Shown here: one piece after another, positions 4,001 through 28,739 of the stretch
How positions within the stretch are numbered: the first letter of the stretch is position 1
Layout of the letters: every line of letters begins with the position of its first letter
NCBI RefSeq assembly: GCF_035084215.1
Contig: NC_090355.1
Coordinates: 4,588,001 to 4,652,000, forward strand
Direction of reading: 5' to 3'
Length of the DNA stretch: 64,000 bases
Source: Heptranchias perlo
Taxonomy: Eukaryota
Notes under the pieces: generated by a model
What the model was told of the DNA's origin: nothing
The model's input: only the letters and a program-made list of their open reading frames with translations
Databases searched by the model: none
Translations under genes and position numbers: made by a program

Positions 4001-7000
4001 AAGTCCTGTAATTCTTGGCACATTGCACCGCACTAGCTTAGGAACTGGGCCCCGAGTCCCAGTGCAAAAAATAACCAGCGGTGGTGAGGACACTCCTTAA
4101 CGGGCCCTGGGGAAGGGAGAGAGGGAAGAGGGGAAAGAAAATCAGCCCTGATTCCCACTCCTGATCACTACCCAGCTACTCCAGCTGGAAGGCATGTTTT
4201 GATCATGGGTGAGGTTAGGATCAGGCTTGACTGATGCCCCAACAGTTTAACAGTGCAACAAAACTCTTTATACCCACATATGAAGAAAGGCCTCTTGGAC
4301 GGACAGTGCCCGTCCTTTGAACTGTCTCCCGACATGGGGCAGTCCTCAGGAGAGGAGGGGTAAGGGGAGAAGACGAGACTTGGGTTCTACAGACCTCTGC
4401 TACTTCTATCAGGTGCACCTTTTACTCCCTTCCATCCCTAGCCCTTCACATTATATTGCACTCTAAGCCTCCACTCATTCCAATGTCTTTGTACGACTCA
4501 GTGACTAGTGCACCTCAGCATCGCTGGAGCCAGGCTAACAAGGGCAAAAATGTTCTGAAGAAGGCCTATCCCAGAAGGTGATCCAGGTGTCAGCTGTGGC
4601 TCAGTTGATAGCATTCTCGCCTTGGAGTCAGAAGGTTGTGGGTTCAAGTCCCACTTGAGACTTGGCCACAAAAACTAGGCTGACGCTCCATTGCAGTACT
4701 GAGGGAGCGTTGCACTGTCGGAGGTGCCGTCTTTTGGATGAGACATTAAACCGAGGTCCCGTCTGCCCTCTCAGGTGGGTGTAAAAGATCCCACGGCACT
4801 ATTTCGAAGAAGAGCAGGGGAGTTTTCCCCGCTGTCCTGGCCAATATTTATCCCTCAACTATCGTCAGTAAAAAAAATTATCTGGTCATTATCACATTGC
4901 TGTTTGTGGGAGCTTGCTTTGCACAAATTGGCTGCTGCATTTCCCTACATTATAACAGTGACAACAATTGGCTGTAAAGCTCTTTGAGACGTGCCGAGGT
5001 CGAAAGACACTATATAAATGCCAATACTTTCCTTAAAGAATTTAGTAGACACAGTGTACCTGCATCTCCTTAGCACAGCCCCATCAACAGGACGGGCTGT
5101 CTCACTGACAAATGGAACAGGTGATCATAGCAATCACCATGGGCCTCTCTGACCATAGGGGCCCACCACAGTCACAGCTTACCTCAGACAGCTCGCACCT
5201 CGATATGTCCAGGATGTCATCAGCACCGGCTTCGCGAGCCTGTCCATAAGGGAAAAGGGAACGATATATTTTTAGATGTTAAAAGAAACTTGGGGCAAAA
5301 ATAAAGTGAGAACCTATTCAAAATTTGCTCAACTTGCAGTTATATTTTCAAACACAAAGATACATAGAGCTAGAGGGAAAGACCTTCCCCACCCCCTCCC
5401 CAACACAAACACACTAATCAGTTGTAGCAGCGATACAGGTTTCACACACCCTTAGTTAACAGTAAGCTCTGTTGGAAAACCTCTTGTGGGATGAAATTGT
5501 GCTGTGTGATAGTAACTTAATGAGCAGTCCTCTATCCGCTGTCTGAATGAAGTATTCATCTATTTATTGTTGGAGGGTTGACACTTTCATTAAAGGTCAG
5601 AAAACAGGGAGAGAGAGAGAGAGAGAGAGACAGACAGAGAGAGAGAGAGAACACGTGCACTTAGTGACCAACCTAATTGATGCATTGAAGGGGAAGCTGG
5701 AGGGAGAAAAGAATAGAAGGATATGATAATGAGGTTAGATGAAGTAAGGAGGGAGGAGGCTCGTGAGGAGCATAAACAACGGCACAGACCAGTTGGGCCG
5801 GACGGCCTGTTTCTGTGCTGTCAATACTATGTAACCCACAGCAGCCACCATTGCTCTGGCTAGCTGGTGTATATAAATACAGAATACAGTACAGTACTGT
5901 TACAGCTGTGATTTAAATCTGCACCAGTTACAGGGTGAAGACTCCAAACTCCTCCCACCCCCCTGCCCTGCCCCTCCCCACAGCTGTCTTGTTCAGTGAC
6001 TTAGGCCTTTGCAACGTCACTCAAAGAAGAGCACTCAGGCTACACACAATCTGCAGGCACTTAACAACCTGCATCACGAGGAGATAGAGGGACAACTCCT
6101 TACGAGCTTCAGACCCCAGCTATGCCAGGGGATGGAATGCAAAACACTCAATTAGAGAGTCGGTGGAGATGGGGGGGGGGGAAGGGTCAACCGCCCATCT
6201 ACTCTGCTGGTAGGAGAGGGGGTGGAGATCTAATGTGGGGCAAATTAAATAAACTTTATTTATCAGAGAAGAGGGTTACCATTCACACATCTGATTTGAT
6301 CATATGCAAATTTACACTCGAAGCCCTTAATCTCAATTGTCCCCAATGTTCTGCTGGCCAGCCTCCCCCTTCCACCATCTATAAAATACAAGTCACCCAC
6401 AGTCTGTGACCCATGTTCTTGCCCACACTAACAGCCCCATCACCTCGTGTTTAGTCAAGCTCCACTAGGTTCCCATGTCTCAGAGAATTATCGTTCTCAC
6501 CTTTCCTGACCTCCGTGATTTTGACCCTGCATGCACCCTTCACTCCTCAAAAACGTGTGTTCTCATCCCTAGGGATGCCCCTTCAGCCACTACACCTCCG
6601 CCCTCTAGATCTTCCTCAGCACCTCCACCATGTCACCTCCCAATCTTCAAAAATTTCCTTAAGACCCCCTTGTGACCCTCTTCCCTTCCTCCCTCCTGCC
6701 TATCATCCTCTCTTGGTGACATCTCTCTGCGCACGATGGGTGATACAGAAACGTAACTGAGTCAAGCTAATTCTTCACTTGAAATCACAGCTCTCAAAAC
6801 GGATTATAAATGTTGGACAACTGAAGTGAGCAGAGCACAAGCCAACAGGGGAGTCAACGAACTCTCCTCACTGAACGAGAGAGACAGGCACAGAGAAAGA
6901 GAGAGAGAGAGAGGGAGAGAGCGAGTTGTCACTTTACTCCAGAATGAGATGTTTCAGCCCAGAGGCGTTCTCAGCTGGACAGTGAAGATCTGCTCCACAC

Positions 7001-9344
7001 TCAACGGCTGTCGCTCCTGTGAGCAAAATGAGTTCACGGTATTTGGTCATCAATGGTCACTCCTCCCCTTTTAAACATAAACCTGCTTTAAAGGGGAAAT
7101 TCTTCAATGAAGAAGCTGCTCATCGACTATTGGCATCAGGTGCAAGAGATGAGATTGAAATCATAAAAGCAGAAACTGCTGGGCAGGCTCAGGTGAGGCA
7201 GCCTCTTTGTATTGGAAAAAAAATAAACTCCTGACTGGTGTCCGCGGGGAATTAAACCATCGGATTGTTAAATGTTTACAAACCGTACAAGACATTGGGG
7301 GGAGGGAGGAATAGTCAGAGCCCCGATCCTCCCTCCCTCCCACCCAGCGCCCCCGTCCCGGCCCCTCTCCCCCGGCCCGGCCCCCCCGCTCTCCCCCGGC
7401 CCGGCCCCCCCGCTCTCCCCCGGCCCGGCCCCCCCGCTCTCCCCCGGCCCGGCCCCCCCGCTCTCCCCCGGCCCGGCCCCCCCGCTCTCCCCCGGCCCGG
7501 CCCCCCCGCTCTCCCCCGGCCCGGCCCCCCCGCTCTCTCTCCTCTCCCCCGGCCCCTCTCTCTCTCCCTCTCTGCTCTCCCCCGGCCCGGTCCCTCTCCT
7601 CTTCCCCCCCCCCCCCCGGCCCGGTCCCTCTCCTCTTCCCCCCCCCCCCGGCCCCCCTCTCTCCCCGGCCCCCCCGCTCTCCCCCGGCCCGGTCCCTCTC
7701 CTCCCCCCCCCCCCCCACCCCGGCCCGGTCCCTCTCCTCCCCCCCCCCCCCCCACCCCGGCCCGGTCCCTCTCCTCCCCCCCCCCCACCCCGGCCCGGTC
7801 CCTCTCCTCCCCCCCCCCCCCCACCCCGGCCCGGTCCCTCTCCTCCCCCCCCCCCCCCCACCCCGGCCCGGTCCCTCTCCTCCCCCCCCCCCCCCCACCC
7901 CGGCCCGGTCCCTCTCCTCCCCCCCCCCCCCCCACCCCGGCCCGGTCCCTCTCCTCCCCCCCCCCCCCCCCACCCCGGCCCGGTCCCTCTCCTCCCCCCC
8001 CCCCCCCCCACCCCGGCCCGGTCCCTCTCCTCCCCCCCCCCCCCCCCACCCCGGCCCGGTCCCTCTCCTCCCCCCCCCCCCCCCCACCCCGGCCCGGTCC
8101 CTCTCCTCCCCCCCCCCCCCCCACCCCGGCCCGGTCCCTCTCCTCCCCCCCCCCCCCCCCACCCCGGCCCGGTCCCTCTCCTCTCCTCTCCCCCCACCCC
8201 GGCCCCCTCTCCTCCTCCCCCCCCACCCCGGCCCGGCCCCCTCTCCTCTCCCCCCACCCCGGCCCCCTCTCCTCTCCCCCCACCCCGGCCCCCTCTCCTC
8301 TCCCCCCACCCCGGCCCGGCCCCCTCTCCTCTCCCCCCACCCCGGCCCCCTCTCCTCTCCCCCCACCCCGGCCCGGCCCCCTCTCCTCTCCCCCCACCCC
8401 GGCCCGGCCCCCTCTCCTCTCCTCTCCCCCCACCCCGGCCCGGCCCCCTCTCCTCTCCTCTCCCCCCACCCCGGCCCGGCCCCCTCTCCTCTCCTCTCCC
8501 CCCACCCCGGCCCCCTCTCCTCTCCTCTCCCCCCACCCCGGCCCGGCCCCCTCTCCTCTCCTCTCCCCCCACCCCGGCCCGGCCCCCTCTCCTCTCCTCT
8601 CCCCCCACCCCGGCCCGGCCCCCTCTCCTCTCCTCTCCCCCCACCCCGGCCCGGCCCCCTCTCCTCTCCTCTCCCCCCACCCCGGCCCGGCCCCCTCTCC
8701 TCTCCTCTCCCCCCACCCCGGCCCGGCCCCCTCTCCTCTCCCCCCACCCCCCCTCTCTCCCCCCACCCCGGCCCGGCCCCCTCTCCCCCCACCCCCCCTC
8801 TCTCCCCCCACCCCGGCCCCCTCTCCCCCCACCCCCCCTCTCTCCCCCCACCCCGGCCCGGCCCCCTCTCCCCCCACCCCCCCTCTCTCCCCCCACCCCG
8901 GCCCGGCCCCCTCTCCCCCCACCCCCCCTCTCTCCCCCCACCCCGGCCCGGCCCCCCCTCTCTCCCCCCACCCCGGCCCGGCCCCCCCTCTCTCCCCCCN
9001 NNNNNNNNNNNNNNNNNNNNNNNNNNNNNNNNNNNNNNNNNNNNNNNNNNNNNNNNNNNNNNNNNNNNNNNNNNNNNNNNNNNNNNNNNNNNNNNNNNNN
9101 NNNNNNNNNNNNNNNNNNNNNNNNNNNNNNNNNNNNNNNNNNNNNNNNNNNNNNNNNNNNNNNNNNNNNNNNNNNNNNNNNNNNNNNNNNNNNNNNNNNN
9201 NNNNNNNNNNNNNGCCCGGTCCCCCTCCTCTCCCCCCCCCCGCCCGGCCCGGCCCGGCCCCCCCTCTCTCACCAGGCACATCTGATATTCCAGCCGTTTC
9301 CGCGCCTCTTCATTTTGCTTCTTTTTCCGAGAGAAAAGCATCAT
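1060..9344 (-). CDS. LRSAM1: E3 ubiquitin-protein ligase LRSAM1, first five coding exons (gene continues left of the window)
   Basis: GT-AG exons, all phase 0: 9344-9273 (MMLFSRKKKQNEEARKRLEYQMCL), 5239-5183 (AREAGADDILDISRCELSE), 3920-3876 (IPASVFSMCRVLQKK), 2412-2335 (VLIVHTNHLSTLLPKSCNIQDLSMLK), 1128-1060 (ILDLHGNRLTSLPEEMGQLLALQ). The peptide matches the vertebrate LRSAM1 N-terminus and first LRRs. Head-to-head with RPL12, as in human. Confidence 0.95.
1339..1625 (-). mobile_element. 3' fragment of the second LINE family (same as 39755-41048)
   Basis: Near-identical to 52456-52745. Confidence 0.85.
1929..2097. repeat. 20-bp perfect minisatellite (CGAGGGAGAGAACAGGGGAG) x8
   Basis: Direct inspection. 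Confidence 0.97.
2600..2860 (+). mobile_element. LF-SINE-like element fragment
   Basis: Contains GGGAGTGTTTGATGGGACAGTGTAGAGGGAGCTTTACCCTGTATCTAACCCATGCTGTACCTG, homologous to 62780-62880 (minus). Confidence 0.55.
4587..5030 (+). mobile_element. tRNA-derived Deu-domain SINE (SacSINE1/AmnSINE-like), near full length
   Basis: A box TGGCTCAGTTGA and B box GGTTCAAGTCC; central GTGCCGTCTTT..GATGAGAC..TAAACCGAGG..AAAAGATCCC domain; tail CACTATATAAATG. Confidence 0.85.
7327..9270. repeat. C-rich/G-rich minisatellite in LRSAM1 intron (copy 1)
   Basis: Variant units built from CCCCGGCCCGG, TCCCTCTCCT and poly-C; very few A on the plus strand. Confidence 0.95.
9000..9213. other. assembly gap (214 N) inside the GC-rich minisatellite
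   Basis: Run of N. Confidence 1.
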
Positions 9345-10012
9345 TTCGGGCCGAGGCTCCGCCTGTCCCCGCGGGGAGCGGCCCGGACAGCGGGGAGGAG
9401 GAAGAGGGACAAGCGGCCGCCAGCACGTCCCTCTGCGGGATCCGCTCGCTCGGCACCGCCTCGGCCTCCCACCGATCCTCAGACGATTCTTAACCCAAGG
9501 CAGCGACTGACTCAGTTCCGCCTCCCGTCACTCCTCCAGCGCCAACAAGCGCCCAAAGAAAAGCAAGAGGTGTCACTTCAACCAACAAGTAGCGAGAGTG
9601 AAACAAGAGGTGTCCGCTACGCTGACCTCCCAACGCTGAAACCCCCCCAAATGCTGACAGGAGAATAAATACCACAGTAATCCAGTAGATAAGTTTGTTA
9701 TATATCCTACGCTTTACTATTTGGTTAATTTTTTTCAAGATTTCCAGTAATTTGCCGTCCGTGTCGTTATGACTTGCTCTGATTCTCGGACTGTGATCTT
9801 GTTTTTGCCTCACACAATATGGCGCCGCGTTGGTGCCATTCGGAAACCTCGCGATACTCGGCCTGGGTATATAAGGCGGGAGCGCGATAAGGTCTCCCTT
9901 CTCGCTGCTCCTGTCGGTGACGGTGCAACTAAACTTCGGTCGTCCCGAATCCGGGTTCATCCGACACCGATACCGCGCGTCAGAGCAGTAAACGCCGTCA
10001 GCCGCCGCCGGG
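9345..10012. promoter_or_regulatory. CpG-island bidirectional promoter RPL12/LRSAM1, with TATA box and TCT/5'TOP start
   Basis: About 670 bp between the divergent ATGs. TATATAA at 9868-9874 lies about 25-30 nt upstream of the pyrimidine tract CTCCCTTCTC (9894-9903). YY1-like AATATGGCG near 9816-9824; CCTCGCGATA near 9847-9856. Duplicate at 19795-20462. Confidence 0.85.
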
Positions 10013-13000
10013 ATGCCTCCTAAATTCGATCCCAACGAAATTAAAGTCGGTGAGTGTGGCGGGGAGCTGGCGGCTGGGCCTTGGTGGGGGAAGCATCAGG
10101 GCTCAGGGCTGGGGCCTGACTCCTGCGCGGGGCCGCGTGTTTTACAGACATGTGTCCGGTCTCTGTGTGCGGATCCATGGCTGTGGGGGGTGGGTGGTAA
10201 TCTCCGCCACGGGATTCCCGCGACTCTCCTCACCCCCCCCCCCCCCCCGGTGGTAGGCTCGCTGCTCCTGGTCACTGATAGGCCCAGCCCTGTCCCCAGT
10301 GAGGGTTTGCAGTACTCCACTGGCACTGTTTCTCCGTCATTAAACCTTCAACTCGATATCCAGACTGCACCTCAACAGGGTTAAAGTGAAACGACCCGAG
10401 GACCTGAATATGCCGGACTGCGAGCAGCCAGCCAGGCTGTTCCAGTACAGTGATTCCTTTTATTATAATAATGACTGTAACTGTAGTAAGTGTGCTGCCA
10501 TTACTGCTGTTTGTAGCAGTCACGGCACTTCAAAAGTAATTAATTGCACGTGAAGTATTTTGGGATGTGGAGAGGTGTGTAACTCTGCAAGTATGTCTTC
10601 CCATGACATTAATGCGTTGATTTGGTAATAATGGTCCTCGCTGTTCTGTTGTATTGAAGGGCAGTTGCAGACTGTTGGACCAAAAAAAAGTTGATGTATA
10701 AAGCTTCAATTTTTAGTGTGAGTCTTTGGGTTTATAATTGGAGGTATACGTACTTCTGTCAAGGAAAGTGGCCAGAGCAACAATGCTGTAGGAACACCAT
10801 CGCTTCCAGGTTCTCCTTCAAGTGACACAGTATCCTGACTTGGACATGCATCACTGGAAATCCTGGAATCTGCCACCCCTCTCACACCATTGTGGGCACA
10901 CTATCAACAGAAGGACCGCCATGGTTCAAGAAGTCCCACCATTCTCAGGACTAGAGATGGGCAATAAATGCCAGCCTTGCTAATGTCTCTTTGAGAACAA
11001 AAAGATAATTTAGATTTTAGTTGACGTTTATAAACAACAGCTTGGAGCAGTTTAATGTAAATGAGCCTGTTCCCAATGGCTGCTTCTAGTGCCTGAAGTA
11101 TTGGATTGCCAGGATTTTCTGCAATTTATGAATGCCATAACTGGCATTTGTGAATGTTCTGGTGTTGGGGGTCCTTGTGGTCACCTCACGAATTAATGTG
11201 GCTGTCAATTATCTGAAAGGCAATGTTGACTTAGGAACATGGGAACTTGGAGTAGAATTTTGGTGTAGATTTATTAAAATTAGAATTTTAATGAATCTGG
11301 TTGGTAAGTGTGAACTTTCTCACCAAAGAATAACACGTGTGCTCTTGTGTAATGTATCCAAGTTTGCCGACGATACAAAGCTAGGTGGGAAAGTAAGCAG
11401 TGAGGAGGACACAGTCTGCAAAGGGATATGACTGGTTAAGTGAGTGGGCAAGAAGGTGGCAGATCGTGTATAATGGAGGGAAATATGAGTTTATTCACTT
11501 TGGTAGGAAGAATAGAAAAACAGGATATTTTTTAAATGGTGAGAAACTATTAAATGTTGTGTTCAAAGAGACTTGGGTGTCCTCGTACAAGAAACACAGT
11601 TAGCATGCAGGTACAGCAGACAATTAGGAAAGCAAATGGCATGTTGGCCTTTATTGCAAAGGGGTTGGAGTACAAAGAGTAAGGATGTCTTACTATAGTT
11701 GTACAGTGCATTGGTGAGACCTCACCTGGAGTATTGCATACAGTTTTGGTCTCCTTATCTAAGGAAGGATACACTTGCCTTAGAGGCGGTGCAACAGAGG
11801 TTCACTAGATTAATTCCTGGGATGAGAGTGTTGTCCTTTGAGGAGATTGGGCCTATACTCGCTGGAGTTTAGAAGAATGAGGTGATCTCATTGAAACATA
11901 TAAGATTCTGAGGGGGCTTGACAGGGTAGGTGCTAAGAGGTTGTATCTCCTGGCTGGAGAGTCTAGAACTAGAGGGCATGGTCTCAGGAAAAGGGGTTGG
12001 CCATTTAAGACTGAGATGAGGAGGAATTTCTTCACACAGAGGGTTGTGAATCTTTGGAATTCTGTACCTCCAGCGGGCTGTGGATGCTGAGTTGTTGAGT
12101 ATATTCAATGATTGGGTGGGTCCATCCAAGCCATCAATCAAGCGCTATGGGGTGTGGGTGGGAAAGCGGAGTTGAGGCTGATGATCCGGTGATATGGCCT
12201 ACTCCTGCTCCTATGTCTTATGTTCTTTCTATGTGAAGTAGTAGCTGAATTCATTATTTAAAATAAGCTGCCTGTCAGTGGGTAGCGATTAGCCCACTAG
12301 TTTATGCCTCAGTGGAAACATTAGTCTGTGTATCAGAATGTGGAGGGGGCGGGGGAACCCTGTTGGGGCAAAATAGGAGTGTTGCCGGTAGACAGTTTTC
12401 TTAAATTACTAAATGTAAACTTTCCCGTCAAGAGTTTAAAGGGTGTTTAGTTAGAGAAAGCCGTTGTTTGCAAAAGCTGGTTTTGTAAAATGCTGACGCC
12501 CTCCCCTCAAAGGCATAAAACAAAATAGGGATTAATGAGTCTGCCAATGTGGGGGAAATTCAGATGAATCAGCAGACCCTGGGTTTAGTGTTTGTAAACC
12601 ATGCCTGGTGACTGTCTTTTGTGTCTCCATAGTGTTCCTCAGATGCACTGGAGGTGAAGTTGGTGCGACCTCTGCACTGGCTCCCAAGATTGGCCCACTG
12701 GGTCTGGTGAGTCTCTGCCGCCCCCCCCCCCCCCCATTACACCCATTTCAGATTACTCCTAGCAGTACTTTTTCTTCTTAACTTTTCCTCCTTTTCTCTG
12801 TTTAGTCTCCCAAGAAGGTGGGTGATGACATCGCCAAGGCTACAGGTGATTGGAAAGGCCTGCGTATCACAATCAAGCTGACTATTCAGAACCGACAGGC
12901 GCAGGTATGTGTTGGGGGGGGCGCTGCTTGCATCTACACTGACTTTTTTCCAGCTGTGGTAAAAGGGCTAAATTTTTGATCCATCATGTACACCTATAGC

Positions 13001-16000
13001 CTACTTGAAAAGCATTACAGTAGTATATCTGGGGATCACAGGCATTAGAGAGATGTACAGCAGGACAGTGTTGTGCTGTGGCTACCAATGCAATGTTTCC
13101 TAAGTTGACATACCCAACCCTGACAGTTTAAGTTTGCAGGTTAAGATTATCTCTAGGTGTCCGCTGCTATTAAGCCAGCCTGAGGGGTATTGAGTGACAG
13201 CTGCACAGAGGCTGTGTGTATAAAACTATGGGTGCTCCCTTTCCAAACCAAAGGCGCTCCTTTTCCAAACCACATGCATATTGGCATAGGGACAGGCAGA
13301 TTAGATGGTTAAGTGCATGGCTGAAAGTGGTGTGGGAAGCAGGGGTTTTGATTCATGGGGCATTGGCACCAGTACTGGGGAAAGAGGGAGCTGTTCTGTT
13401 GGGATGGGCTCCACTTAAACTGGGCTGGGACCAGTGTCGCGGCGAATCGATTAACTAGGACGGTAGATAGGACTTTAAACTAATAAGGTTGGGGGGAGAC
13501 AGTTCAGGTGAAGGTAAATTTATAAGTCTAAAGAGTAAAGTCAAGGCTGTAGAACGCAGTGTGTGTCAGGAAGGGACAGAGAGCTTAACAAAGGGCATTA
13601 GTGACATGGGTCACAAGGGAAAATGGTAAAAAGTTAAAATTAAAGGCACTATATCTGAATGCATGAAGCATTTGTAACAAGATAGATGAGTTAATGGCAC
13701 AAATAGAGATAAATGGATTTGATGTAGTAGCCATTAATGAGATGTGGTTGCAGGGTGACCAAATTTGGGAACTAAATATTCCAGGGTAGTTGGCTTTTAG
13801 AAAAGATAGACAAAATGTAATTGGGGGGGGGTAGCTGAGATAAAGGTAGCAGTGAGAAAAGAACTTAGTTCAGAGAATCAGTATGGGTGGAGCTAAATAA
13901 CAAGGGACAGAAAACACTGGTGGGAGTAGTTCATAAACCACCTAATAGCAGTTAGTGTTGGACAGAGTGTAAATCAGGAAATTAGAGGAGCATGTAACAA
14001 GGGTAATGCAATAATTATGGGGGACTTTAATCTTCATCTAGACTGGGCAAACCAAATTGGCAAAAGTAGTTTGGAGGATGACTTCATGGAATGCATTCGA
14101 GACCGTTTTCTAGCACATTATGTCGAGGAGCCAACCAGGGATCCGGCTATTTTAGCTCCAGTATTGTGTAAGAGACAGGGTTAATTATTAATCTTTTATA
14201 ATAAAGAATCCTCTGGAAGAGTGATCATAATATGATAGAATTTCATATTGAGTTTGAGAGTGATGTAGTTAAGTCCGAAATTGGGGTCTTAAATTTAAAC
14301 AAACTCAATTACGTAGGTATGAATGGTGCGTTGTCTAAGATAGATTAGGAAATTAGATTAAAAGATATGATGGTAGATAAGCAATGGCAAACATTTAAAG
14401 AAATAATTCACAATTCTCAATGAATATACATTCCCTTGAGGAATATAAAAACTCCACAGGAAGTGATCCAACTGTGGCTAACTAGAGAAGTTAAGTATTA
14501 GATTAAAAGAAAAGGCTTAGAATGTTGCCAAGAAGAGTAGTAAACTTGAGGATTGGGAGGGTTTTAGAAATCAGCAAAGGGTGACCAAGAAATTGATAGA
14601 GGGAGAAAATAGAATGAGATGAAACTAGCAAGTAATAAAACAGATTGTAAGAGCTTCTGCAAGTATGTAAAATGGAAGAGAGTAACAAAAGTAAACGTGG
14701 GTCCCTTTTAGAAGTAGAGACAGGAGAAATTATAATGGGGAATAAGGGAAAGGCAGAGACGTTAAACAAATATATATTGTATCTGTCTTCGCAGCAGAAG
14801 ATACAGAAAACATAACAGAAATAGTGGGGAACCAAGGGTCTAATGAGAGTGAGGAAATTAAAGTAATTAATATCAGTAAAGAAAAAGTACTGGAGAAACC
14901 AATGGGACTAAAAGCCACAAATCCCTATGACATGGTTTACATCCTAGGGTTTTAAGAGGTGGCTGCAGAGATAGTGGATACATTGATTTTGATCTTCCAG
15001 AATTCCCTAGATTCTAGTACAGTCCTATAGATTGGAAGGCAGCAAATGTAACCCCACTATTCAAGAAAAGAGAGGAAAAAAACAGGGAACTATAGGCCAG
15101 TTAGCCTGACATCAGTAGTAGGGAAAATGCTGGAATCTATTATTAAGGATGTTGTAACAGGGCACTTAGAAAATCATATGATTAGGTCGAGTCAAGGCAG
15201 TTTTATGAAAGGGAAATTGTATTTAACAAATTTATTAAGAGTTTTTTGAGGATGTAATAAGCAGGATAGATAAAGGTGAACCAGTAGATATATTTTCAAA
15301 AGGTAATCGATAAGGTTCTTCAAGAGTTTGTTACACAAAATTAGGGCTCGTGGTATATAGCATGGATTGAGGATTGGTTAACGGACAGGAAACAGCATAG
15401 GAATAAACAGGTTGGTTTTGGGTTAGCAGATTGTAACTAGTGGGGTGCCACAAGGATCAGTGCTCGGGCCTCAGCTATTTACAGTACATCAGTGACTTAG
15501 ATGAAGGGACTGTGTATAATGTATCCAAGTTTTCTGATGATACAAAGCAGTGAGGAGGACGCAAAGAAGCTGCAAAGGGATATAGGCAGGTTAAGTGAGT
15601 GGGCAAGAAGGTGGCAGATGGAGTATAATGTGGGGAAATGTGAAATTACCCACTTTGGTAGGAAGAATAGAAACACTGAATTTTTTTTGAGAAGTTGGTT
15701 GTCAGGGATTTGGGTGTACATGAATCACAGAAAGTTAACATGCAGGTACAACAAGCAATTATTCAATTCATTAGCAATTAGGAAGGCAAATGGTATGTTA
15801 TACTTCAATCCCGTTGCAATAAAGGCTAAGAGTACGGAGGTCTTGCTGCAATTATATACGGCTCTGGTGAGACCACCTGGAGTACGTTTTATTCTCCTTA
15901 CCTAAGGAAGGATATACTTGCCTTTAGAAAGGGTGCAACAAAAGTTCACTAGATTGATTCCTGGGATGAGCGGGTTGTCCTATGCGGAGAGATTGAGTAG

Positions 16001-17992
16001 AATGGGCCTGTATTCTCTGGGGTTTAGAAGAATGAGAAGTGATCTTATTGAAACATAAGATTCTGGTCAGCCATTTAGGACTGAGATGAGGAAAAATTTC
16101 TTCACTCAGGGTTATGAATCTTTGGAATTCTCTATTCGAGGGCTGTGGATGCTCAGTCATTGAGTACATTCAAGACAGATCGACGGATATTTGGACATCA
16201 AGATATAAGGGGATAGGGTGGGAAAGTGGAGTTGAGGTTGAAGATCAGCCATGATCTTACTGAATGGCGGAGCAGGCTCAAGGGACCGTATGGCCTACAG
16301 CTCCTATTACGTTACGTCTGTCTTTGAGCATCCAGTGGCTTTTTAAACCACTGGAGCCAAACTGTAGCTGGGCCGCCTCTGGTACCTCATCCGAGTGGTC
16401 AGTTGTGTGAGATCCCAGTGGATGTTGGCAGGCTCATTGTTCGTTGAAGACATTAAACCCCATTCTGTTGTGTTCAAGACTTGCATGAATATCCTTTTTC
16501 ACCAGGAGATGCTGGTTTATGATGAGAACAGGAGCCCTGGCTGTTGCTTCCACTGTGCTCCAGGCCAGTAGCCATGTCCAAAAGTTGACTTCACTGATTC
16601 AGGAAGAAAAGTGTCCAGAAAATGTTAACTAGTTCATTGAATCTGGACTTAACTCCTGTCTTAGAACTGCACATTGTTGGCTGCAGGTTACAGGTGAAAT
16701 AGAGATGCCAAAGTCCCATTGGAGCATAGTGTGGTGCATTTTGAATTGTGTGTGTAACTGCATTGGTCAGTGGGGCTGTGGTTCGTGCCCTGTTGTTCAC
16801 GTAGCCTTGTAAGTGATTTGCACACAGGCTACTGGGGACAGGCCGTCCTATGCAAGTGATCAGGGAAAATTCCTTGTAGAATGTTCCTCTGGGAAAGGTG
16901 GATGAGATTAATTGTGAGTTGAGTTTTGTTCACTGCTGTATCTTCTACTGACTGCTGTATTTCATTCATAGATTGAGGTTGTCCCATCAGCTTCTGCCCT
17001 CATCATCAAAGCCCTGAAGGAACCGCCCCGTGACAGGAAGAAGCAAAAGAACAGTAAGTAGTGATGTAGGGTGGGCAGAGGTTCGACGCTGTTCAATTTG
17101 CCTCTTCCATGCAACATTAACTACCTGTGGTAAAAGCTGAGTGAAGATCTATTTGGTTGCAGTTAAACTTATACACTGTTGTACTGTGGGTGTTGTTTGA
17201 CTGTGATTCAGAAATATCTGGTTGTGTAGATTTGCTTTCTCTTCCCCCCCCCCCCCCCCCAATTCCTCGAAGATGCTGACTGCCCAGTGCAGTGGTCCTC
17301 CAGTACCTTGCCCAGTGTTCCAGGTGATGTGTTGGTGGGCTATATAACTGGGAGACATCACAGCCAGGCATGAACACACCTTCACAGGACTTGCATAAAC
17401 ATTTGATGGTTAGCAGTGAAGTGGTAACTCTTGACCTTTTATTCGCACTCTCCCCGTGTGTGCTGATGAAATCAGAAGCCAGGATCTAGGCTGTCGTTCA
17501 CTGGGCATTGAGTTTACCCACTGGTGGTGCAGCTGGCCTGTTGTATGGGGGTGTGTATTAACTGCCAGTATTGATTCTGTGTTTCTTTCTAGTTAAACAC
17601 ACTGGCAGCATCACCTTTGATGAGGTGCTTAGTGTCGCCCGACAGATGAGGCATCGTTCTTTGGCCAGGGAACTTTCAGGTAGGTGCTGACTGATGTAAT
17701 GGGCCTTGGTGTCTGTCGTGCATTCATGCTAGATTGGTGGAATAGGGATAAGACTGATCTTGTTTATAACCACCACAGGGACTGTGAAGGAAATCCTGGG
17801 AACTGCTCAGTCCATCGGCTGCAATATTGATGGCAAACACCCTCATAGTGTGATTGAGGACATCAACCAGGGCAAGATCGAGTGTCCTGCTGTAAGTTTG
17901 GTTTTTTGGATTACCTTGTACTGCATTGATTTTTGACTCGTGCTTTGCCAAGTCGACTTACACAGTCTATTCTTTCCTTCCAACAGGAATGA
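10013..17992 (+). CDS. RPL12: 60S ribosomal protein L12 (uL11), copy 1, complete
   Basis: Exons 10013-10049, 12633-12706, 12806-12904, 16972-17053, 17593-17679, 17779-17891, 17987-17992 (37+74+99+82+87+113+6=498 nt), all GT-AG. Encodes [48 protein letters not shown]...GKIECPAE*, 165 aa. Confidence 0.98.
11348..12227 (+). mobile_element. CR1 LINE 3' fragment in RPL12 intron 1 (duplicate 21800-22679)
   Basis: Encodes [11 protein letters not shown] and downstream RT C-terminus, with frameshifts; TATGTTCTT-type tail. Confidence 0.9.
13265..16320 (+). mobile_element. decayed CR1 LINE (end of ORF1, endonuclease, RT) in RPL12 intron 3 (duplicate 23712-26769)
   Basis: DGLHLN (SGNH-esterase ORF1), IIMGDFN (endonuclease), NYRPVSLTS and [10 protein letters not shown] (RT), with many stops and frameshifts. 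Confidence 0.92.
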
Positions 17993-18020
17993 AGTGGAGG
18001 TACCATAGAACTAAGTTTCC

Positions 18021-18026
18021 AATAAA
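18021..18026 (+). terminator. RPL12 polyadenylation signal (copy 1)
   Basis: AATAAA about 30 nt after the stop codon, followed by a GT/T-rich downstream element. Confidence 0.85.
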
Positions 18027-18076
18027 AAGTCTTTAAAAACAATTGAACCTGTTTGTGTGCTGGTTTGTTTTCTTTG

Positions 18077-18276
18077 NNNNNNNNNNNNNNNNNNNNNNNN
18101 NNNNNNNNNNNNNNNNNNNNNNNNNNNNNNNNNNNNNNNNNNNNNNNNNNNNNNNNNNNNNNNNNNNNNNNNNNNNNNNNNNNNNNNNNNNNNNNNNNNN
18201 NNNNNNNNNNNNNNNNNNNNNNNNNNNNNNNNNNNNNNNNNNNNNNNNNNNNNNNNNNNNNNNNNNNNNNNNNNNN
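18077..18276. other. assembly gap (200 N) between the duplicated blocks
   Basis: Run of exactly 200 N. Confidence 1.
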
Positions 18277-18832
18277 TAGTCAAGCTAATTCTTCACTTGA
18301 AATCACAGCTCTCAAAACGGATTATAAATGTTGGACAACTGAAGTGAGCAGAACACAAGCCAACAGGGGAGTCAATGAACTCTCCTCACTGAACGAGAGA
18401 GACAGGCACAGAGAGAGAGGGAGAGAGCGAGTTGTCACTTTACTCCAGAATGAGATGTTTCAGCCCAGAGGCGTTCTCAGCTGGACAGTGAAGATCTGCT
18501 CCACACTCAACGGCTGTCGCTCCTGTGAGCAAACTGAGTTCACGGTATTTGGTCATCAATGGTCACTCCTCCCCTTTTAAACATAAACCTGCTTTAAAGG
18601 GGAAATTCTTCAATGAAGAAGCTGCTCATCGACTATTGGCATCAGGTGCAAGAGATGAGATTGAAGTCATAAAAGCAGAAACTGCTGGGCAGGCTCAGGT
18701 GAGGCAGCCTCTTTGTATTGGAAAAAAAATAAACTCCTGACTGGTGTCCGCGGGGAATTAAACCATCGGATTGTTAAATGTTTACAAACCGTACAAGACA
18801 TTGGGGGGAGGAATAGTCAGAGCCCCGATCCG

Positions 18833-19720
18833 CCTCGTCCCGGTCCCTCTCTCCCCCCCCCCCCCCGTCCCTCTCCTCTCCCCCCCCCCCCCGGCCGGTC
18901 CCTCTCCTCTCCCCCCCCCCCCCGTCCCTCTCCTCTCCCCCCCCCCCCCCCCCCCGGCCCGGTCCCTCTCCTCTCCCCCCCCCCCCCCCCCGGCCCGGTC
19001 CCTCTCCCCCTCCCCCCCCCCCCCCGGCCCGGTCCCTCTCCTCTCCCCCCCCCCCCCCCCGGCCCGGTCCCTCTCCCCCCCCCCCCGGCCCGGTCCTCTC
19101 CCCCCCCCCCCCGGCCCGGTCCCTCTCCTCCCCCCCCCGGCCCGGTCCCTCTCCTCCCCCCCCCGGCCCGGTCCCTCTCCTCCCCCCCCCGGCCCGGTCC
19201 CTCTCCTCTCCCTCCCTCCCCCCCCCCGGCCCGGTCCCTCTCCTCTCCCTCCCCCCCCCCCCCCGGCCCGGTCCCTCTCCTCTCCCCCCCCCCCCCCCCC
19301 CGGCCCGGTCCCTCCCCTCTCCCCCCCCCCCCCGGCCCGGTCCCTCTCCTCTCCCCCCCCCCCCCCCCCGGTCCCTCTCCTCTCCCCCCCCCGCCCGGTC
19401 CGGTCCCTCTCCTCCCCCCCCCCCCCCCGGCCCGGTCCGGTCCCTCTCCTCTCCCCCCCCCCCCGGTCCGGTCCCTCTCCTCTCCCCCTCCCCCGGCCCG
19501 GTCCGGTCCCCCTCCTCTCCCCCCCCCCGCCCGGCCCGGCCCCCCCCTCTCCCCCCGGCCCGGTCCCCCCCCCCCGCCCGGCCCGGCCCCCCCCTCTCCC
19601 CCCGGCCCGGCCCCCCCCTCTCCCCCCGGCCCGGCCCCCCCCTCTCCCCCCGGCCCGGCCCCCCCCTCTCCCCCCGGCCCGGCCCCCCACTCTCCCCCCG
19701 GCCCGGCCCCCCCCTCTCTC
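18833..19720. repeat. C-rich/G-rich minisatellite in LRSAM1 intron (copy 2, shorter)
   Basis: Same unit family, about 0.9 kb, gap-free. Confidence 0.95.
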
Positions 19721-19722
19721 AC

Positions 19723-19794
19723 CAGGCACATCTGATATTCCAGCCGTTTCCGCGCCTCTTCATTTTGCTTCTTTTTCCGAGAGAAAAGCATCAT
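19723..19794 (-). CDS. LRSAM1: LRSAM1 first coding exon, duplicated copy
   Basis: Same 72-nt exon (MMLFSRKKKQNEEARKRLEYQMCL) and GTGAGA donor as 9344-9273, offset 10450. Confidence 0.9.
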
Positions 19795-20462
19795 TTCGGG
19801 CCGAGGCTCCGCCTGTCCCCGCGGGGAGCGGCCCGGACAGCGGGGAGGAGGAAGAGGGACAAGCGGCCGCCAGCACGTCCCTCTGCGGGATTCGCTCGCT
19901 CGGCACCGCCTCGGCCTCCCACCGATCCTCAGACGATTCTTAACCCAAGGCAGCGACTGACTCAGTTCCGCCTCCCGTCACTCCTCCAGCGCCAACAAGC
20001 GCCCAAAGAAAAGCAAGAGGTGTCACTTCAACCAACAAGTAGCGAGAGTGAAACAAGAGGTGTCCGCTACGCTGACCTCCCAACGCTGAAACCCCCCCAA
20101 ATGCTGACAGGAGAATAAATACCACAGTAATCCAGTAGATAAGTTTGTTATATATCCTACGCTTTACTATTTGGTTAATTTTTTTCAAGATTTCCAGTAA
20201 TTTGCCGTCCGTGTCGTTATGACTTGCTCTGATTCTCGGACTGTGATCTTGTTTTTGCCTCACACAATATGGCGCCGCGTTGGTGCCATTCGGAAACCTC
20301 GCGATACTTGGCCTGGGTATATAAGGCGGGAGCGCGATAAGGTCTCCCTTCTCGCTGCTCCTGTCGGTGACGGTGCAACTAAACTTCGGTCGTCCCGAAT
20401 CCGGGTTCATCCGACACCGATACCGCGCGTCAGAGCAGTAAACGCCGTCAGCCGCCGCCGGG
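19795..20462. promoter_or_regulatory. duplicate of the RPL12/LRSAM1 bidirectional promoter
   Basis: Near-identical to 9345-10012, with substitutions at 19892 and 20309. Confidence 0.8.
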
Positions 20463-28441
<7,979 letters not shown>

Positions 28442-28469
28442 AGTGGAGGTACCATAGAACTAAGTTTCC

Positions 28470-28475
28470 AATAAA
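28470..28475 (+). terminator. RPL12 polyadenylation signal (copy 2)
   Basis: AATAAA plus GT-rich downstream element, as in copy 1. Confidence 0.85.
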
Positions 28476-28739
28476 AAGTCTTTAAAAACAATTGAACCTG
28501 TTTGTGTGCTGGTTTGTTTTCTTTGGGTGTATGTGGGGGGAAGTTCAATCTGAAATTTGCTTCCTGCAATGTTAAAAGTTTGGATACATTTTTTTGATCA
28601 TCATCTAAACATTTCCCTGATGGCTTTGAGTTCCTTGTTGTTACTGAAATGGGTTGGAACACAGATTGCATTGACTAAAACAGCACAAAGTTCTTGCGTC
28701 AGTAAATGCTTTTTTGTATATGAAGCAACCCTTGAACAT

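Follow-up and report, generated by a model that had tools for sequence, protein, structure and literature searches.

The 5' leader of the RPL12 (uL11) gene carries a conserved 49-nt motif, which is likely a feedback operator. As judged from sequence, it would mimic ribosomal RNA, bind free uL11 and repress RPL12, and we put the probability of this reading at about 0.65. What is new here is seen in the aligned bases, where the invariant positions of the leader copy the base of helix 43 of the LSU rRNA. RPL12 feedback has reportedly been known genetically since work on C. elegans. The motif offers a 49-nt candidate site for this feedback, with base-level predictions from L11-rRNA crystal structures, and the question is therefore directly testable. 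If the reading is true, RPL12 feedback would have its missing cis-element, and uL11 a first mRNA element to which it binds. The motif would also be one of the few instances of rRNA mimicry of the bacterial kind in mammalian mRNA, would extend a bacterial textbook principle to a vertebrate TOP message and would give a handle on RPL12 dosage.

The RPL12 gene and its leader motif

We analyzed a stretch of 64,000 nucleotides from Heptranchias perlo, which is called the window below and is meant at its full length. The + strand carries the RPL12 (uL11) gene, in which a TATA box is followed by a pyrimidine tract and by the ATG at 10013. Start sites, UTR introns and isoforms, here and below, are predictions from sequence. 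The features of the window are as follows.

9273-9344, - strand: first coding exon of a head-to-head gene, which we take to be LRSAM1; 24 codons, then GT
9868-9874, + strand: RPL12 TATA box, from sequence
9893-9903, + strand: pyrimidine tract, the TOP/TCT start site predicted from sequence
9904-9919, + strand: predicted basal extension in Heptranchias perlo
9921-9969, + strand: conserved RPL12 leader motif, 49 nt, in the order P1, bulge, P2, internal loop, P3
9921-9925, + strand: 5' strand of P1, pairs with 9965-9969
9926-9935, + strand: one-sided bulge, N-A-A-Y (two invariant A) and a variable linker of 3-6 nt
9936-9939, + strand: 5' strand of P2, pairs with 9961-9964
9940-9942, + strand: 5' side of the internal loop; 9942 pairs with 9958
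9944-9955, + strand: P3 and its loop (9948-9951), lineage-variable in length and sequence
9958-9964, + strand: 3' side of the internal loop and 3' strand of P2
9965-9969, + strand: 3' strand of P1, contiguous with P2, with zero unpaired bases between them
10013-10049, + strand: RPL12 exon 1, coding part, then GT donor
12633-12706, + strand: RPL12 exon 2
12806-12904, + strand: RPL12 exon 3
near 16972-17058 and 17592-17888, + strand: further RPL12 exons
20371-20419, + strand: second, identical copy of the leader motif, inside the duplicate

The preliminary description had claimed a 57-nt element at 9912-9968, and we confirmed it between the pyrimidine tract and the RPL12 ATG. Minimum-energy folding of 9922-9968, and of the whole leader, gives its three nested helices, with pair probabilities of 0.95-0.97 in the latter. 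The predicted basal extension pairs 9912-9919 with 9971-9979 and 9904-9910 with 9983-9989. Across relatives the bulge is 7-10 nt long, one-sided and begins with N-A-A-Y, and P1 stacks on P2. Above P2 follow a two-by-two internal loop, then an invariant G-C pair and finally the variable P3. Folding energy was considered as evidence and rejected as not significant, as it did not rise above chance (z from -0.9 to -1.7 in five + strand folds); the support for the motif therefore comes from conservation. No Rfam 15 family reached its gathering threshold in the window, and the leader itself had no Rfam match up to E = 10.

Among the records compared, the RPL12 exon peptides of the window were closest to the shark record P0173. 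The whole gene is present twice, at 9232-18076 and 19683-28525 (8.86 kb, 99.4% identity, 23 mismatches and 10 gaps). Runs of N at 9000-9213 and 18077-18276 bracket the first copy, and 6760-8245 recurs at 18278-19718. The identical copy of the element reported earlier at 20362-20418 is present, within this duplicate. The second RPL12 copy is probably an uncollapsed haplotype or an assembly duplicate. Since its motif lies inside the duplicate and the first copy is bracketed by N gaps, it is no independent evidence, and we dropped it as support.

A long C-rich minisatellite with units of about 37 nt occupies 7322-8999 and 18830-19718; it reaches the first intron of the opposite-strand gene and borders the first N gap. 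Intron 1 of the window RPL12 holds donor-like sites at 10486, 10718, 11304 and 11440, which could serve unproductive splicing. In the annotated vertebrate uL11 isoforms P0173, P0215, P0226 and P0236, exon 1 is replaced by other sequence. Human RPL12 is the host of SNORA65; in the window RPL12 introns no snoRNA was detected at the Rfam threshold.

Conservation of the motif

We scanned a metagenome collection with a degenerate pattern of the first coding bases of RPL12 only, a search that is blind to the leader, and obtained 25 loci (L001-L025). The motif was present in 24 of them, 10-78 nt upstream of the ATG, and in these as in the window it stands between a pyrimidine tract and the ATG, in the predicted 5' region of the ribosomal protein's own transcript. 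The sole exception was L020, in which the motif was not found. In that locus an intronless RPL12 (501-998) stands beside a frame that is LINE-like by eye, which is what one would expect of a retrocopy from a lineage in which splicing removes the motif.

Local alignment to the window leader linked L010 alone (score 69; the others scored 14-23), and the architecture was alike by eye in nearly all loci. Based on flank similarity, the 24 motif loci formed about 6 clusters, with 16 loci in one of them. We infer that the loci are invertebrates and one vertebrate-like locus; the closest named full-length matches of L009 were copepods (84-86%). Intron 1 follows base 37 in the window, in L010 and in the large cluster, follows base 33 in L002, L007, L015, L022, L024 and L025, and is absent from L009 and L020. 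To us these three states suggest that the loci diverged long ago. Scans of the viral and prokaryote collections yielded 0 further RPL12 loci, hence the leader set is without fungal, plant or protist members.

A descriptor of the motif, derived from the 25 loci themselves, matched the window at the two copies only. Among 52,000 shuffled leaders it had 2 matches, and 38,016 control bases gave none. As these loci had themselves supplied the descriptor, we added a held-out test with a covariance model (R1); it was trained on 18 distant loci and excluded both the window and L010. The top hit of R1 in the 64 kb was the window element (19.9 bits, E = 0.004; the next hit had 10.7 bits), and the held-out L010 was found at E = 1e-4. 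The window and L010 share 30 of 32 nt in the core, both changes being in the hairpin loop; outside the core only 1 of 6 linker positions and 19 of 46 positions of the downstream UTR are identical.

Further, we used uL11 protein records that start upstream of the true start. Such extensions are translated 5'UTR, and they report codon compatibility, not DNA identity. Among 120 uL11 proteins listed, 2 were extended, and the cluster of one of them yielded more. We examined 12 mammal records, 11 of which were extended (mangabey, macaque, gibbon, hyena, hedgehog and deer are among them, and several are 'like' copies). Seven of these 11 fit the window core at 32 of 32 nt and the other four at 28-31, while shuffled controls reached at most 26 of 32. 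The 5' word was compatible at 8 of 8 positions in 9 of the 10 testable mammal records, with a 5-nt linker. Conservation up to the human leader, as claimed earlier, is thus borne out for mammals at the codon level (11 records, none of them human), and DNA identity is not visible in records of this kind. Among extended invertebrate proteins, 4 of 12 fit the full descriptor (shuffles 0/2,400) and the other 8 start inside the motif or miss one position; as all of them are close relatives of L009, they carry little independent weight.

Four sequencing runs that we guessed to be RNA of one organism (A) contained 0.5-0.88 of the words, and organisms B-D and fish metagenomes contained small shares; the four runs have their sample code in common with the possible source, and none of these data were counted as evidence.

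Covariation of the paired positions

The two outer pairs of P2, which the descriptor leaves unconstrained, were Watson-Crick in 20 of 20 distinct cores. One of them occurred as C-G (11), G-C (7) or U-A (2) and the other as U-A (18) or C-G (2), and the two inner P2 pairs were invariant. RNAalifold recovered P1, P2 and P3 from the plain alignment. In the model alignment 92% of 300 cells were paired and 9 of 15 pairs had changed on both sides, with 38-56% paired in slid controls; this alignment was fitted to the model, and its counts lean towards it. Independent compensatory events are few, because there are only about 6 flank clusters and 16 of the 24 loci fall in one.

The leader is nearly invariant in vertebrates and therefore silent in vertebrate covariation screens, and its structure emerges once invertebrates are added. 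A conserved secondary structure with compensatory changes was found across these clusters. We are close to certain that the RPL12 leader holds a conserved RNA structure, and the preliminary description was right in calling it a structured, conserved cis-RNA, as the motif reaches invertebrates and covaries. Its conservation goes deeper than that description had supposed.

Resemblance to helix 43 of LSU rRNA

The target of the comparison, the uL11 site in LSU rRNA, was set beforehand, and the parts compared were picked after inspection. As references we used E. coli 23S rRNA and a eukaryotic GTPase-centre domain (L027) that was confirmed by Rfam RF02543. This domain comes from the viral collection, in which two contigs carry eukaryotic LSU rRNA at their ends (L027 1-415, L028 208-329). 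In the RF02543 consensus, helix 43 consists of three pairs, then a two-by-two loop and another stem. P2 and the internal loop align position by position with rRNA 1057-1062 / 1076-1081, as listed.

9937-9939, + strand: equivalent to rRNA 1057-1059
9940-9942, + strand: equivalent to rRNA 1060-1062
9958-9963, + strand: equivalent to rRNA 1076-1081
9923-9929, + strand: last three bases of P1 and the next four, like rRNA 1091-1097, the helix-44 word

At G1058, G1059, U1060, G1062, A1077, U1078, C1079 and C1080 the leaders are invariant and carry the base of eukaryotic rRNA. In total, eukaryotic rRNA is matched at 8 of 9 helix-type invariants and, in the 5' word, at 6 of 6 near-invariant positions. 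Position 1076 is C in the leaders, as in E. coli, versus A in eukaryotes, and 1061 differs. In the rRNA, A1088 is two bases from the pair beneath helix 43. The mimic is partial, being without the 1067 loop, without the 1082-1086 hairpin and without A1088 in sequence order; P3 and its loop stand where rRNA has the 1067 loop. We conclude that conserved bases of the leader resemble the rRNA site of uL11 as a partial mimic, in which the equivalent of A1088 would have to be supplied from elsewhere.

When the 58-nt domain was shuffled 20,000 times, 1,008 shuffles reached the helix-43 match and 392 reached the 5' word; 21 reached both. The joint score was not attained by any of 285 tiles of E. coli 23S rRNA. 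Against the likeness, a looser pairing descriptor gave 2 hits on E. coli 23S rRNA (helix 43 and one chance site; 0.58 expected), and R1 did not match rRNA up to E = 1. The predicted pairing of the 5' word is not the same in leader and rRNA, so its likeness may be a coincidence.

According to the available text of PMC2175356, the C-terminal domain of L11 binds this stem in its minor groove and also binds the U1060-A1088 pair, and eukaryotic rRNA is bound by bacterial L11. The bacterial-type 1062-1076 pair of the leader therefore need not hinder binding.

The structure might be real and the rRNA likeness due to chance, with another ligand (a TOP/LARP1 partner, uL10/P0, a uL11 chaperone or importin) or with ligand-free tuning of translation. 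Each rRNA match alone is modest (5% of shuffles for helix 43, 2% for the 5' word), the mimic is without the tertiary partners of helix 43, and only 25-50% of bacterial ribosomal protein leaders imitate rRNA, according to the available part of PMC7247131. We nevertheless consider this unlikely, since the invariants coincide with the uL11 footprint, with pairs and internal loop arranged alike, and do so in uL11's own gene, and the joint chance is about 0.001 for a single rRNA site that was chosen a priori.

Proposed feedback by uL11

That uL11 binds the leader motif, as the preliminary description had guessed, is, on the sequence comparisons, quite probable; the case is strengthened by the motif's reach into invertebrates, by its covariation and by its likeness to the rRNA site of uL11, which that description had not noticed. 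Repression by uL11 through the motif, as judged by analogy, is likely, if with less confidence; PMC8047918 and PMC4937301 lend it indirect support. Three of the five defining features of rRNA-mimicking autoregulatory leaders were found, namely location, structure and rRNA likeness.

We envisage that uL11 in excess of the needs of ribosome assembly would bind the hairpin and stiffen it. One of the two invariant bulge adenines would cross the deep groove of P2 and dock on the U1060 equivalent, filling the place of A1088. In vertebrates, where the motif appears exonic, the bound hairpin would slow scanning or AUG recognition. In the lineages of L007 and L024, in which a short 5'UTR intron apparently contains the motif, close to the donor, splicing would be blocked. 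New rRNA with the full site would draw uL11 off and lift the block.

The distance from the motif end to the AUG is about 45 nt in the window, 14 nt in mammals and 10 nt in the large cluster, where the motif is apparently exonic; this closeness to the AUG points to scanning or start recognition. A perfect donor lies 15 nt upstream of the motif in L007 and 12 nt upstream in L024, and both loci have a pyrimidine/AG acceptor 30-41 nt downstream of it. Such a position between donor and acceptor points to splicing. In L024 the last three donor bases lie in the P1 extension. L002, L022, L015 and L025 have acceptor-like tracts, with donors weak or absent.

Alternatively, uL11 might bind with an outcome other than repression, such as catching new uL11 for folding, hand-over or local storage, or stabilising the message. 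Either sign of regulation would agree with the sequence data, and the distance between motif and AUG varies from 10 to 78 nt. This outcome seems quite unlikely to us. The known ribosomal protein leaders repress, as far as they are covered in the available text of PMC10931766 and PMC7247131, and in C. elegans an excess of uL11 lowers its productive mRNA (PMC8047918, part of the text). Moreover, P1 borders on the AUG in the cluster of 16 loci, and in L024 it borders on the splice donor.

Returning to the operator reading, we offer a broader version tentatively, at somewhat less than even odds. An ancient operator of animals and possibly fungi may rebuild the uL11 site in a new strand topology, where an adenine of the bulge takes the place of A1088, and may have been redeployed as a translation block (vertebrates, exonic) or a splicing block (some invertebrates, 5'UTR intron).

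Alternative fold and promoter element

The preliminary description had proposed a two-state switch, in which 9912-9920 pairs with the 3' arm as an alternative fold. The complementarity does exist in the sequence, and upstream pairing carries weight in L001 (0.46) and L021 (0.36). The second state itself did not hold up: in the full leader the alternative register has P = 0.000 and costs +10.9 kcal/mol, and 9912-9919 instead extends P1 by pairing with 9971-9979 (P = 0.73-0.86). The weight of an upstream competitor was 0.00 in 19 of 21 distinct leaders, the window among these. Even the 9912-9968 fragment favours a third fold, and the switch would be possible only briefly in transcription, before 9970-9979 is made. 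No two exclusive conserved folds of similar energy were found among the 21 leaders, and we regard the switch as highly improbable.

The motif might instead belong to the bidirectional RPL12/LRSAM1 promoter as a DNA element, the fallback of the preliminary description, or to an exon that overlaps it. This would agree with a position about 25 nt past the predicted start site in a head-to-head gene pair and with very high vertebrate sequence identity as promoter elements have it, but is very unlikely given that paired positions change on both sides, P3 and linker vary in length between fixed words, flanks are unrelated, spacing and promoters differ, the motif is always on the RPL12 sense strand, and the LRSAM1-like coding exon lies about 580 nt away without overlap.

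Comparison with known systems

An animal RPL12 leader structure or a mimic of the uL11 site was not found in the literature; a report of one could exist in supplements or subscription papers. The main text of 10.64898/2026.10.24.761493 does not mention RPL12, nor do 12 of the 20 supplementary files of PMC13271884.

The closest published structure is a fungal one. Gao et al. 2021 (PMC8216456, available text) describe an RPL12 5'UTR structure in Pezizomycotina (57 sequences, 9 covarying pairs). It shares with the animal motif the gene, the region and a proposed autoregulatory role, but concerns filamentous fungi only, and its available text makes no claim of rRNA mimicry and does not mention animals. 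Compared by description, the two may be the same element.

Feedback of ribosomal proteins on their own pre-mRNA, conserved across animals, is found in C. elegans rpl-12, in the unproductive splicing of human RPL12 and in the L10ARE of RPL10A; unlike the leader motif, these controls are intronic. The available text of PMC8047918, PMC4937301, PMC7354994 and PMC5765348 describes that an excess of uL11 shifts rpl-12 splicing in C. elegans and that human RPL12 has NMD-targeted isoforms, and gives no cis-element for uL11 feedback. The L10ARE is unrelated to its rRNA site (PMC4937301, part of the text), and in the part of PMC2095825 available a direct action of rpL12 in its own regulation is stated as not proven. 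The mapping of the C. elegans rpl-12 control to an intron counts against a leader operator.

The uL11 site itself (helices 43-44, E. coli 1051-1108) shares with the leader the pairs 1057-1081, 1058-1080 and 1059-1079. The U1060/U1078 loop, A1077 and G1062 are arranged alike, and the 1091-1097 word is present. The leader differs in that it is without the 1067 loop and the 1082-1086 hairpin, its strand order is another one, and A1088 would come from the bulge. Its 1062-1076 pair is G-C as in E. coli, whereas eukaryotes have G-A.

The bacterial uL11 operon has uL1 as its repressor. Leaders that mimic rRNA in bacteria and archaea (the uL1 operator of rplK-rplA, and those of uS8, uS15, uL4 and bL20) likewise copy an rRNA site in the gene of the ribosomal protein, while the RPL12 leader belongs to a eukaryotic, single-gene, capped TOP message. 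A leader bound by uL11 is not named in the available text of PMC7247131 and PMC10931766. By analogy with the bacterial rRNA-mimicking leaders that these two sources describe in the same text, the RPL12 leader motif likely works as they do.
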